A stretch of 64,000 nucleotides of DNA from Gammaproteobacteria bacterium. GTDB taxonomy: Bacteria; Pseudomonadota; Gammaproteobacteria; JAJFKG01. A program made the translations under genes and the position numbers. Shown piece after piece: positions 3,352 through 52,800 of this stretch. The notes below the pieces were generated by a model. That model searched no databases, was not told the DNA's origin, and worked only from the letters and a program-made list of their open reading frames with translations. The stretch spans positions 1,642,503-1,706,502 of the forward strand of contig OZ220716.1 of NCBI GenBank assembly GCA_965116795.1, given 5' to 3'. Within the stretch, counting starts at the first letter, position 1, and every line of letters begins with the position of its first letter.

Positions 3352-3706
3352 AAAACGCCCGCTGCGCGCCAAGGAGAGCGATAGCTCAAGGCGCGTAGTC
3401 CGCGGAAGCCGAGGCTTGTCATCGCAAACGGAGTTGCCGGAAAGCCAACGCTCGCAGGCAAGCGCAGTAAGCGATGACAAGCTATCCTCGGCGTCGAGTC
3501 ACTTGAGAGGCGATCTGCAGTGTGCGTCAGTACACGTAGGAATCGGTGACGAGGACGGCCGCGGCAACTTAGGTAGTCACGTTAGCGAGTCGATTTTGGG
3601 CATGGATGAACGAAATCTTTCACGAGATAGTGACTCAATTGATCGTTGGTGGATCTTACCAGAAAACGTCCACTCAACGCTGACGTTTTTTGGTAGCATT
3701 AGGACC
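3352..3706. repeat. Small repeat/MITE (family R) hosting 282-nt copy 1
   Basis: AAAACGCC|ATCGTTGGTGGATCTTACCAGAAAA...ATTAGGACC; the end is the reverse complement of GGTCCTAAT that starts the 40844 copy. Confidence 0.65.
3360..3641 (+). mobile_element. 282-nt structured repeat element, copy 1 (divergent copy)
   Basis: Colinear with 5769-6050 and 51312-51593 and the same length; removing it restores AAAACGCC|ATCGTTGGTGGATCTT, a motif seen uninterrupted at ~40857 and ~45995-46036. Confidence 0.9.
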
Positions 3707-4065
3707 AACTGAGTTGTTACAATTTTTGTAGGATGCGGGGGATGGGCTTAAAAGCAAGTTAGTGATTGTTGTGACAACCTTTGCATTTTATCATCTATCT
3801 CATCATAAAGAGTTAGCCCTGCTTGTTCAAATATATCTAATAAGTCTTCGTAAGTGTCTTGGCCACCAAGAAAATCCCAAAACTCTTTACCCACCATTAC
3901 TTCTTTATCTAAATCAAAAAGTCCTTGTAATGTCCAGCGTTCGTAGGGTTCAGGTTCATAGGGGTTGTATGGAATAGCAACAATGGTTTTAATGTCTACA
4001 TGTTGATTTTGGCTGCCTCGCATTGCTATCCAATTAAGTAATTGTCTTTTGATAGTAGTAAATTC

Positions 4066-5083
4066 ACGCCATGCTCGACTTTTTTGGGATAAAATTGTTT
4101 AAAGTTTGACTGGCACAGTGAATTCCAGTAATTTTGGTTTGAAAGAATCGCCCTTACAAGGAGAGTCACCATGCCATTGGAGGATTTTATCATTACGGTG
4201 TTTTGTTTAGTAGCGGAAAGTACCAAAAGTATGGAAGGATTACAGGTGCTACGACATCGAGGTTTCGCACCAAAGTTATCAGATGAAGAAGTAATTACCA
4301 TGGAAGTTGTCGGAGAATTTTTAGGAATTGATACAGATAAAGGCTTATGGTCTTATTTTAAAACTAACTGGCAAATGTTGTTTCCCGATCTAGGAGCACG
4401 TAGTAACTTTGCAAAACAAGCAGCAAACCTGTGGAAAGTAAAACAAGTTATCCAAATGAAAATAGGTGACCAACTGCATGCTACTGATGACACATTACAT
4501 ATGGCAGATGGATTTCCGATACCGGTTTGCAAATTCAAACGAGCAAAATATAGTCGTGTATTTAAGGGTGAAGCAGGCTTTGGATACTGTGCATCCAAAG
4601 ATGAGACTTATTACGGTTTCAAAGGAAATGTTGTGATTAATTCTGAAGGTGTGATCAGTAGTATAACGGCGACAGCCGCTAATATCGATGAAAGAGAATC
4701 GCTTTGGGATATTATTGGCGGCATTAGTGGATTAATGTTGGCTGACAAGGGATTAATTGGCAAAGATTATCAACAGCAACTGGCACGAGAGACAAACGTA
4801 AACTTGCAAACACCACTACGCGATAATATGGTTGATACAAGAGGAAAAGATGCAGCATCATGGTTGATATCAACACGGCGTTTGGTTGAAACGGTTATCG
4901 GCCAATTAAGCGAACGGTTTCATATTCAAAAAGTCAGGGCAAGAGATACATGGCATTTCACTAATCGTGTTACCAGAAAAATATTATCACACACCTTGGC
5001 CGTATTTATTAATAAGATAGTGGGTAACAAACCACTTCAGTTTGAAAGGCTCGTCACTGTATGAAAAAAGTCGAGCATGGCGT
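4066..5083 (+). mobile_element. IS982-family insertion sequence
   Basis: 20-bp perfect TIR ACGCCATGCTCGACTTTTTT and 7-bp TSD TAAATTC (4059-4065, 5084-5090). Confidence 0.95.
4171..5064 (+). CDS. IS982-family DDE transposase
   Basis: LSDEEVITM, DGFPIPVC, YYGFK, ADKG and RRLVETVIGQL motifs. Confidence 0.93.
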   Translation: MPLEDFIITVFCLVAESTKSMEGLQVLRHRGFAPKLSDEEVITMEVVGEFLGIDTDKGLWSYFKTNWQMLFPDLGARSNFAKQAANLWKVKQVIQMKIGDQLHATDDTLHMADGFPIPVCKFKRAKYSRVFKGEAGFGYCASKDETYYGFKGNVVINSEGVISSITATAANIDERESLWDIIGGISGLMLADKGLIGKDYQQQLARETNVNLQTPLRDNMVDTRGKDAASWLISTRRLVETVIGQLSERFHIQKVRARDTWHFTNRVTRKILSHTLAVFINKIVGNKPLQFERLVTV

Positions 5084-49649: not shown

Positions 49650-49890
49650 TTTTATAAATGGGGGGTTTACAGTTTAACTGCGGATTTTAGGTTAAAGCAA
49701 AAAATGTTTTTGATAGTATTGGAAGATAAAACTTATAGGTAACGATGTGGAAAAGTGTTGACAGACCAAATCACTATTCGGGCAAAACCGGAATTACCGT
49801 TCGAATCAGGGTGAAATACACAGTTGACAGTTTTTTGGTCAATCAGTATAATCAGGAAATTTTTATTATTCATACAAATAAGGGGGGGTT

Positions 49891-52800
49891 ATGCTTGGTG
49901 TTACTGAGAAGCGTATGTTTACGGCTGTACAGAGTGGCGAAAAAGGGGTAGTTAAGTTTTTGCTACAGCGTGGTGCCAGCATTGAGGCAAGAAGTGAAGA
50001 CGGCTTTGCCCCTTTATATGTGGCTGCAGAGTATGGCCAAAAAGAGGTAGTTGAGTTACTGCTACAGCATGGTGCCAGCATTGAGGCAAGAAGTGAAGCA
50101 AGAAAAAGCGGCGGTACCTCTTTACATATAGCTGTATGGAATGGCCGAAAAGAGGTAGTTGAGTTACTACTAAAGCATGGTGCCAACATTGAGGCAAGAA
50201 CTAAATACGGCGGTACCCCTTTATGTATAGCTGCAAGGAATGGCTACAAAGAGGTAGTTAAGTTACTACTACAGCCATGGTGCCAGCATTGAGACAAACG
50301 AGGAAGACGGCTATCCTATCCCTTTACATATAGCTGTATGGAATGGCCGAAAAGAGGTAGTTGAGTTACTGCTACAGCATGGTACCAGCATTGAGGCAAG
50401 AACTAAATGCGGCTTTACCCCTTTATATATGGCTGCAAGTAATGGCCACAAAGAGGTAGTTGAGTTTTTGCTACAGCGTGGTGCCAACATTGAAGCAAGA
50501 ACTGAAAGAGGCGTTACCCCTTTATATATAGCTGTAAAGGATAGCCAAAAAGAGATAGTTGAGTTATTGCTACAGCATGGTGCCAACATTGAGGCAAAAG
50601 AGGAAGACGGCTTTACCCCTTTACATATAGCTGCAAAGGATGGCCAAAAAGAGATAGTTGAGTTATTGCTACAGTGTGGTGCCAACATTGAGGCAAGAAG
50701 TGAAGGCGGCGTTACCCCTTTATATATAGCTGCAAAGAATGGCTACAAAGAGGTAGTTGAGTTTTTGCTACAGCGTGGTGCCAACATTGAGGTAAAAACT
50801 GAAGGCGACGATACTCTTTTCCATATAGCTGTACGGAATGGCTACGTGGAGATAGCTGATGCTTTACTAAACCAGTCTTTTCCATATGGGAAAAGTGTGA
50901 TATCAGCTGCAATTGAAGCAAAGCAACCTGTACTTTACTTTGCAGCACAAAACTGCAACGCGGGTGATTATAAAGAACAACTGGATTTTTTACTTGAAAA
51001 TGGCATGGTGAGTGATGGTCTGTACTTTAAGCGGCGAAGTGCAGTGTATTATGCTTTACAGCAATATCAGCCTGAAGACGATACACAAGTCTTGGAGACA
51101 TTATTCAGATATTGTCAGCATTTTCACCGAGTTGTTTTTAATTTACTTATTAAGAAAGGAAATCCTAGCTTAATAGAAGCTTTAATTAGGGGTCGTCGAG
51201 ATATTGCCAATAAGCCTATTTCATCATGGGTTTCACCTCTTCCTCAGCAGGAGAATGGTGTGAAATATGACAATACCACGTTACTCCAGTATTTAATTCA
51301 TACTGAGCTTGCGCTGCGCGCCATGGAGGACGATAGTCCTAGGCGCGTAGTCCGCGGAAGTCGAGGCTTGTCTTCGCGTACGGAGTTGCCGGAAAGCCAA
51401 CGCTCGCAGGCAAGCGAAGAAAGTGATGACAAGCTTTACTCGGCGTCGAGTCATTTGAGAGCCGATCTGCAGTGTGCGCAAGTACACGAAGGAATCGGTG
51501 ACGAGGACGGCCGCGGCAACTTGGCTGTCGCGTTGGCGAGTCCGATTTTGGGCATGGATGACCAAAATCTTTCACGAGGTAGCGACACAACTGCGGGTGG
51601 AAAGAATTTTGATGTCCTTTCCCCTTTAGTTAATTACGGGGCTCACATATTAGCCTGTGATCAACAGTTCTTAGTACAACTCATTCAAAACAAGAAAGCC
51701 ACTGAATATGCAAAATATTTTTTAGATCAGCTTGATGATGATCCATCTGCAGTCAGTCAGAGCTCTGGAGGAGCAGCAGAGAAAGTATATTCTAATCGGC
51801 AGGAATTTTTGGATAGAGAATTGCTTAACGCTGTTAAAGATAGAGATCTAGAATTGATTAACAGGCTACTTGACTTTAACGCTGATCCAAACTGTCTTAA
51901 TGATAAGGGATTGTCGCCTACTCAAATTGTCGCTGAAGGAGCAGCATGGCTTGACACATGCTACGAAGTATTGTTAGCGTTAGTTAAGAAGGGCGGAGAA
52001 TATAGAGATTCTTCTGAAGGCCTTTCTAGTGATGTTGAACAAGACGGTGCAAAAACGCTTTTTTTAAGAGGGGTAGAAACAATAAAAAGAAGGATTGTAA
52101 GACAAAGCAGGTATGCGAACTTTTCAATTAAAGATGAAGATGGTTGGCATCGCCCCGACGGGAGCCTTCTTTTATTTGGTTTAACAGTATTATCGGCAGC
52201 CGCAATATATGTTCTATTTCTCTATATGACTTCTAGAATCAAAAATTATCATCTTATTGATAGCTGTGCTGATGAGTATAGTGTGGGGGTTTATCATTAC
52301 GAGCCTAACAATTATACTAATCATAGTCAGTATGGTTATAGCGGGCTTTATTCGGATATTAATAGCTATGAGGATTGTGCAGAGGATTGGCTCATATTAA
52401 GGCTGCTAGCAACGCTTCCTCTAGCATTAGTGCCTGCTGGATTATGTATGATCGTTAGTACACTTATGACTTCTAGCTTAGCTGGACAACTTGGAAAACA
52501 AGTTAAAGAATTATCATATAATGCACTATCTAGTAGAGACAAAGAAACCATTGAAGATCTTGAGCGTAAAGCGGACAAACTAGAGGCAGCTGCTGCCCTT
52601 TTTTCCGGTTCTTTAACTAAAGCTGCTTCTAATGGCAGTAAAAGAAATGGTGAGGCAGCCTCTTTAGTTTCTCAAGGAGGAATGTTTTCTCATGGAAAAG
52701 ATGATTCACGAAGTGAAGAAGAAGTAGAATTTAGTACCGTGGCAGAGGACTTGAGAATTTCTGATGAGGAAGGCTCTTTAAGTAGTTCTCAAGGAATATT

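Follow-up and report, generated by a model that had tools for sequence, protein, structure and literature searches.

We analyzed a 64,000-nt stretch (hereafter, the window) of the genome of a gammaproteobacterium (GenBank assembly GCA_965116795.1, contig OZ220716.1, positions 1,642,503–1,706,502), in which an element of 282 nt occurs three times. The element is a member of a widespread, undescribed family of mobile elements of approximately 205–323 nt that contain no open reading frames (ORFs). Its copies were inserted exactly, without target site duplication (TSD) or terminal inverted repeats (TIRs), and nearly all of them begin 4 nt downstream of a cytosine, designated here as C(−4). The same position is recognized by bacterial topoisomerase I (TopA) when it cuts single-stranded DNA. 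We consider it a serious possibility, though short of a probable one, that the element moves as a folded single strand, likely DNA, through cutting and joining by the host TopA.

All three window copies are exactly 282 nt long and lie on the + strand, at 3360..3641 (copy B3), 5769..6050 (copy A1), and 51312..51593 (copy A2). An earlier note on this DNA had reported copies of this length at these coordinates, with the last two copies one base apart, and both observations were reproduced; the single difference between A1 and A2 is A vs. T at element position 62. B3 and A1, the first and the second copies of the window, differ at 31 positions. The genome, represented by one contig of 2.45 Mb, contains eight full copies, every one of 282 nt: four identical copies (subfamily B, including B3), the pair of subfamily A, and two single copies (C and D). 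An older copy, E (336 nt, 72% identical), and two fragments, a 37-nt 5′ piece and a 56-nt 3′ piece, were also detected. Both junctions of A2 were spanned by approximately 30 nt in unitigs of four sequencing runs, so the copies are not assembly artefacts, a concern that the earlier note had raised. The contigs examined contained neither an empty-site joint nor a circle joint, although assembled contigs are not suited to revealing such joints. The near-identical copies of this genome, together with nine copies sharing 99–100% identity in a Methylomarinum chromosome, imply recent movement, as had been proposed.

The family was searched for with a motif from the 5′ part of the element in contigs of a one-genome-per-species collection and in metagenome contigs. 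The first collection yielded at least 125 motif-bearing stretches (approximately 450 estimated). The second yielded 120 loci, 73 of which were true members according to nhmmer, while 47 had no nhmmer match. Among the matches listed, the named carriers were Gammaproteobacteria. They included gill symbionts of Solemya, symbionts of the tubeworms Lamellibrachia and Escarpia, the Methylomarinum strain mentioned above, and metagenome-assembled genomes (MAGs) of Coxiellaceae, Chromatiales, Sulfurifustaceae, and Pseudomonadales. Matches in other phyla showed no likeness past the motif and were discarded, as were four chance pattern matches (loci L041, L059, L072, and L085). A stricter internal pattern removed five more loci, including L108, L114, L115, L128, and L131; it also lost L125 (Methylocaldum), apparently a family member at a contig start. 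No element was found in viral contigs or in plasmid and phage records. Full-length members were 242–323 nt long, and a compact subfamily measured approximately 205 nt. At least 12 loci matching only the first ~55 nt were considered as a possible autonomous version and rejected, being members of the compact subfamily or truncated relics. Longer copies enclosing an ORF, which the earlier note had suggested looking for, were absent from all 245 loci listed (125 genomic and 120 metagenomic). Its check of novelty against Rfam likewise gave no match to the element, either for the window at gathering scores, for 421 nt at E up to 10, or, at E up to 5, for a diverse set of six members; the only Rfam matches elsewhere in the searched loci were one unrelated tRNA and one chance snoRNA. 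A literature search for this or a similar element found nothing relevant, and the passages on mobile elements and insertion sequences in the genome paper of the Solemya velum symbiont contain no such repeat.

As claimed previously for the three window copies, the flanks of the element showed neither TSD nor TIR; the same was true of one orthologous site. The element begins with CGCTGCG... and closes with ...CAACTG, which do not form an inverted repeat, and the boundaries are constant throughout the family (5′ CGCTG...; 3′ ...YTG, or ...ACG in the compact form). Three independent empty sites demonstrate that insertion is exact. Copy B1 lies within a tandem repeat, and the 24 nt obtained by joining its two flanks occur intact in the adjacent unit, a paralogous empty site. 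B3 is located in an intergenic region inside a short repeat termed family R, and its joined flanks (32 nt) match 23 uninterrupted family-R copies with no more than six mismatches. In the symbiont of Escarpia laminata, a 281-nt copy stands in antisense orientation within an hdrA-like ORF, not far from its start; four related symbiont genomes have an empty orthologous site, and the target neither gained nor lost bases. Of the empty sites reconstructed in the earlier note, those of the methylase gene (VLI–NCK) and the ankyrin gene (TEL–AGGK) were obtained again, while the exact 16-mer given for family R had no uninterrupted occurrence and is replaced by the 23 approximate matches. Family R itself has the core TATTAAGGAAAACGCCATCTTTGGYGGATCTT, adjoins a terminator-like hairpin, occupies approximately 3270–3360 and 3642–3730 of the window, and is present in at least 23 copies in the genome.

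The earlier claims of junctions without a shared motif and of no target consensus did not hold. All three window copies follow a cytosine at −4 on the + strand, at positions 3356 (B3), 5765 (A1), and 51308 (A2). To this were added the flanks of the family, taken from the matches listed in each collection: 124 distinct left flanks, 116 of them from the genome collection after removal of chance matches and eight from the window's genome, and 67 distinct metagenome sites. C was present at −4 in 122/124 and 64/67 of these sites, respectively, that is, in 186/191 sites of the two independent collections joined; the two exceptions of the genome set were truncated relics. The search pattern was entirely internal to the element, and therefore the flanks were not biased by the search. 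At the other positions, the preferences were weaker. In the 191 sites, T was favoured at −5 (T93, A51, G40, C7) and G was avoided at −1 (T76, C60, A38, G17), and the first flank base past the element (+1, n = 35) was A in 11, T in 11, C in 8, and G in 5 cases. The four identical copies of subfamily B follow CCAC, CAGT, CGCC, and CTCT. The cytosine belongs to the target and not to the element because the empty sites already have it. A cytosine at the corresponding position was also found at the right end of the element, which was CTTG, CCTG, or CTTA in 26 of 35 distinct junctions. The flanks tended to be G-rich on the strand of the element (positive local skew at 49/66 sites).

Topoisomerase I of bacteria and archaea, as well as reverse gyrase, cuts single-stranded DNA 4 nt 3′ of a C; in the Escherichia coli enzyme, Arg169, Arg173, and Tyr177 grip the −4 base, and the R169A substitution moves the preference at −4 from C to adenine (PMC3467081). 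The in vivo motif of E. coli topoisomerase I is TCNTT followed, after the break, by A/T; the C is described as “strictly required,” the substrate is single-stranded DNA, and the enzyme becomes attached to the new 5′ end, leaving the 3′-OH free (PMC9352719). The insertion-site profile of the element agrees with this rule at −5, −4, −1, and +1: on the strand that is joined, the C stands exactly 4 nt before the break, T is preferred at −5, −1 is mostly T or C, and +1 is mostly A or T. To our knowledge, no transposase, recombinase, or ribozyme recognizes a lone C at −4; IS200/IS605, IS91, and IS110 all recognize longer words. Intermolecular transfer by a covalent TopA complex has been reported. 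TopA was present in 5/5 carrier genomes checked, and in the window's genome it is the single type IA topoisomerase. The earlier note had postulated an unidentified trans-acting enzyme, possibly acting through an RNA or single-stranded DNA intermediate; a single-stranded intermediate is plausible, and with the C(−4) rule the enzyme becomes a specific candidate, the host topoisomerase I. As a housekeeping enzyme, TopA closes the breaks that it makes, and we know of no natural element that uses it for insertion.

The proposed cycle would begin with the folding of the top strand of the element when it becomes single-stranded. TopA would cut the left junction of the folded copy, where C(−4) is recreated by each insertion, and would remain covalently linked to the 5′ end of the element. 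This link would be resolved by the 3′-OH of another strand, itself cut by TopA after C-N-N-N, and the element's own 3′-OH would then be ligated to the target half that lies downstream. With the right end CTTG, seen in most subfamilies, C would again stand at −4, and the junction of a circular form would once more be a TopA site. The fold would keep both ends together and recruit the enzyme. An element of this kind would be a transposon without a transposase, a folded strand of approximately 280 nt using an essential topoisomerase I, and the first one known to depend on a type IA topoisomerase; we regard this as possible but somewhat doubtful.

A conserved fold of one strand is well supported by the alignment. 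In copy A1, the fold starts with helix 1 (element nt 2–11 paired with 31–40; window 5770..5808, + strand), which contains two invariant G.T(U) pairs and carries an apical mini-hairpin (5784–5797). The long-range helix 2 (nt 41–46 with 201–206; 5809..5974, +) encloses helix 3 (nt 49–54 with 128–133), which has a variable arm, and a second variable arm. The 3′ domain (5985..6050, +) is closed by a helix of nt 217–222 with 273–278 and contains a conserved hairpin (nt 233–243 with 248–258), an unpaired ATCTTTCACGAG segment, and finally a 6-nt single-stranded tail, CAACTG. When the 42 proposed pairs were examined in 19 diverse members, 96.2% of the cells were standard pairs vs. 35–46% in slid controls, and compensatory changes were found in 24/42 pairs vs. 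3–7 in the controls. Mutual information was also computed across 45 full-length members in search of additional pairings involving the termini, and nothing but the nested helices emerged. The two invariant G.T(U) pairs of the first helix identify the + strand as the folded one. The + strand also folded better than the − strand, both with RNA parameters (z −4.1 vs. −2.4) and with DNA parameters (z −3.7 vs. −2.8).

The 19 members contained 59 occurrences of CGAAG, with approximately eight expected, and no occurrence of its complement CTTCG. GCGNAGC and GCGNNAGC are described as very stable “mini-hairpin DNA” motifs (PMC13037366). Outside three fixed positions, G.U pairs were rare (approximately 11/738 cells). 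These C-GAA-G loops and the scarcity of G.U pairs hint that the folded form may be DNA. A strand-specific fold in which features other than Watson–Crick pairs mark the active strand is also known for integron attC sites and for the attP site of the CTX phage used by XerCD, where a host or shared enzyme acts and no TSD is formed. Those systems depend on tyrosine recombinases and one specific target, whereas the present element inserts anywhere after C-N-N-N.

Several observations weigh against TopA as the enzyme. The connection between TopA and the element comes from one matching specificity, and a literature search turned up no case of a mobile element that employs a type IA topoisomerase, so the proposal would have no precedent. 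Nine right ends of the window's genus (the window's genome and the sister species G001) are ACTG, ATTG, or ACTA, with A at −4, and the compact subfamily ends with CACAACG; the TopA rule therefore cannot account for cleavage at the right end everywhere. The family is patchy, with matches in 4/40 near relatives of the window's genome, and no copy was found in the E. coli genomes searched, although TopA is universal. Both complete genomes with recent activity carry a Y1 transposase, and the genomes without Y1 are drafts. Folds this elaborate, with several helices, conserved unpaired joints, and invariant G.U pairs, are found more typically in RNA than in DNA. Finally, the orientation of copies relative to replication is inconsistent: the top strand lies on the leading-strand sequence in 8/9 copies of the window's genome (origin near 0.65 Mb, terminus near 2.0 Mb) and in 5/10 copies of Methylomarinum. 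By a crude measure, orientation relative to the upstream coding strand showed no bias either (35 vs. 39). In the Methylomarinum chromosome, the sampled GC skew flips near 0.9–1.0 Mb and 2.3–2.4 Mb, giving very unequal replichores, which may reflect misassembly or a recent rearrangement.

Some features of the carrier topoisomerases were also recorded. The TopA motif RR.LDYLVGF is alike in the window's genome (TopA at contig positions 953362–955668), G001, G005, G021, and G037. In these five enzymes, Tyr and Phe stand in place of Arg173 and Tyr177 of E. coli, residues that one paper calls strictly conserved, and Arg169 is kept. The pocket motif was considered as the cause of the genus-specific right end and rejected, since it does not track the right end. 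G001 has a second type IA topoisomerase-like gene (541 aa, C28:4897–6522) approximately 2.7 kb from an element copy, which is absent from the window's genome.

Alternatively, a dedicated enzyme with relaxed target choice, either an HUH enzyme of the Y1, Y2, or Rep type or a member of a new family, may act in trans on the element, which would then be a non-autonomous single-strand DNA transposon; we consider this rather unlikely. C(−4) would in that case be recognized either by this enzyme or by a single base of the element, in a manner comparable to the guide pairing of IS200/IS605. The palindrome-associated transposable elements (PATEs) of IS200/IS605 resemble our element in that they lack TSD and TIR, have a single active strand whose ends are folded, and insert directly 3′ of a short flanking motif; IS91 shares these hallmarks. 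In polarity, the chemistry of Y1 TnpA (5′-phosphotyrosine and a free 3′-OH) matches that of TopA (PMC5027513). A Y1 transposase was found in 16/22 element-bearing genomes, including both complete ones, and the patchy distribution of the family would suit dependence on an accessory gene. However, PATEs are targeted to a fixed word of 4–5 nt set by a guide, while our element needs a single C at −4; they have two small end hairpins, while here a multi-helix fold is conserved over the whole length. Since identical copies stand after four different tetranucleotides, pairing between a 4-nt guide and the target does not occur.

PATEs move by the “peel and paste” mechanism of Y1 TnpA, but no Y1 was detected in 6/22 carriers (both Solemya symbionts, the Coxiellaceae MAG, the Pseudomonadales MAG, G001, and G005), which as drafts do not prove its absence; at least three of the six (both Solemya symbionts and the Coxiellaceae MAG) hold several near-identical copies. 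The window's genome contains two intact IS200 families, but their insertion sites follow TTTA, and the element's ends are not related to theirs. One of the Y1 genes, present in three identical copies, is intact at 14801–15163 of the window (contig 1657303–1657665); the second family has four copies, and clear subterminal hairpins are seen in both families.

Among other HUH systems, IS91/ISCR (Y2) elements also lack TSD and TIR; they adjoin a tetranucleotide of the flank at one end and terminate in a similar word at the other. For IS91 this word is CTTG and the target is CTTG/GTTC; more generally, CTTG is the nick or target site of HUH enzymes of the IS91, pC194, and phiX174 types, which the CTTG-type right end of our element (26/35) recalls. 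Nevertheless, IS91/ISCR elements carry a Y2 gene and are ten times larger than the ORF-less element, whose target is C-N-N-N. No IS91-type Y2 (PF04986) was found in five carrier genomes except for one weak 22-bit partial match in G021, and TnpB was absent from the five genomes as well. Phage_GPA was not found in eight carriers, nor was Rep_1, for which the search was weak and gave no match in any control genome either. The lack of an ORF-bearing master copy in the loci listed is a further argument against a dedicated enzyme.

It is less likely still that the functional form is RNA, a structured and possibly catalytic molecule (intron-like or retro-mobilized) that is inserted at a single-strand break or reverse-spliced and then copied into DNA. 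The complex covarying fold with its invariant G.U pairs and conserved unpaired joints would suit such a molecule, as would the RNA folding score of the + strand (z = −4.1) and the exact 5′ and 3′ ends of all copies. IStrons and group I and II introns are, like our element, structured and precisely bounded and leave no TSD (PMC4227781), and type IA topoisomerases act on RNA too (PMC7587558). In the window's genome, three reverse transcriptases are encoded at contig positions 1321652–1323250, 1139064–1140470, and 1803828–1804961; the two longest resemble group II intron types by eye, and the third has 378 aa. The Escarpia and Solemya elarraichensis symbiont assemblies gave many reverse transcriptase matches, with ORFs of 600–1,300 aa on short contigs, which may be contamination by host-animal retrotransposons. 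In four carrier genomes, which are drafts so that absence is not proof, no reverse transcriptase was found.

The Rfam searches covered group I and II introns and self-cleaving ribozymes and gave no match, and the element has no intron-end signatures and no insertion-sequence or reverse transcriptase module. Copies occur in both orientations within ORFs: A1 is antisense to the methylase, and four of nine ORF-internal copies elsewhere, including the one in hdrA, are antisense too; splicing therefore cannot be what makes the copies tolerable. Group I introns require U at −1, whereas T occupied this position in only 76/191 sites among the matches listed. Because the flanks vary, no promoter can lie upstream. 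The rarity of G.U pairs outside the three fixed positions and the C-GAA-G triloops, typical of DNA, likewise speak against RNA.

The least probable of the alternatives, which we consider improbable, concerns the window's genome, where the element might be mainly an in-frame, translation-tolerated insert kept as a harmless peptide in effector-like proteins, as are the Rickettsia palindromic elements. The latter are small ORF-less structured repeats of intracellular bacteria that are found in frame within genes and translated. All nine copies of the window's genome have a length that is a multiple of three (282 = 3 × 94; 336 = 3 × 112) and an open frame +2, which remained open in only 2.75% of shuffles; in two subfamilies, paired +1/−1 indels gave back the original length. 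Three of the four sense-orientation insertions into ORFs are read through in the open phase. One is A2, which lies in frame within an ankyrin-repeat ORF (50258..53026, +; 922 aa with the insert) that continues through the copy in frame +2. The others are B1 in a NACHT protein of 1,722 aa and E in a HEAT-repeat ORF of 484 aa; B2 replaces the last 11 residues of a cupin. An IS5-like transposase, encoded in two overlapping frames that are probably joined by a programmed frameshift (contig 1213112–1213682), adjoins the HEAT-repeat gene. A1, on the contrary, is antisense within a DNA-methylase ORF (PF01555; − strand, from 7530 down to the stop codon at 5575–5577) and disrupts its gene. Of six copies from four other genomes (246 nt in two cases, 250, 277, 282, and 295 nt), none had an open frame; other copies elsewhere measured 281–287 nt. 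In-frame reading concerns three ORFs and is restricted to the window's genome, and the element, with its multi-helix fold and defined target rule, is different from a simple palindrome. The pattern suggests that tolerable inserts were selected locally, as among the Rickettsia elements, and is not a family trait; it would account for tolerance but not for movement or the target rule.

The remaining known classes were rejected, in agreement, as regards DDE elements, IS200/IS605, IS110, and group II introns, with the earlier statement that the unrecognized element fits none cleanly. A DDE-type miniature inverted-repeat transposable element is ruled out by the lack of TIR and TSD. A group I intron is incompatible with the absence of an Rfam match at E up to 10, the base at −1, and the antisense copies. 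Group II introns have GUGYG...AY ends, domain V, and an intron-encoded protein with reverse transcriptase, whereas our element has CGCUG...YUG ends, no Rfam match, and no ORF. Guided targeting of the IS110/IS1111 type does not agree with identical copies at unrelated targets; this conclusion rests on the targets, as the DEDD recombinase gene itself was not searched for. IS91/ISCR was rejected on the target C-N-N-N and on the Y2 searches described above, and an IS200/IS605 PATE on the lack of a fixed tetra- or pentanucleotide target, of ends related to those of the resident IS200 families, and of a Y1 match in some carriers with young copies, all of them draft genomes.

Even if a dedicated enzyme is responsible, the element is an unannotated structured repeat that breaks the assemblies of chemosynthetic symbionts, interrupts genes such as hdrA, and, in the window's genome, adds peptides of 94–112 residues to ankyrin, NACHT, and HEAT proteins. 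Given the minimal target (any C-N-N-N) and the cargo-free core of approximately 280 nt, such a system could also be worth considering as a tool for insertion. Should TopA prove to be the enzyme, the family would form a new class of mobile DNA, independent of any gene of its own and in principle able to function in every bacterium, and its movement would show that an essential enzyme targeted by drugs is also active in recombination.

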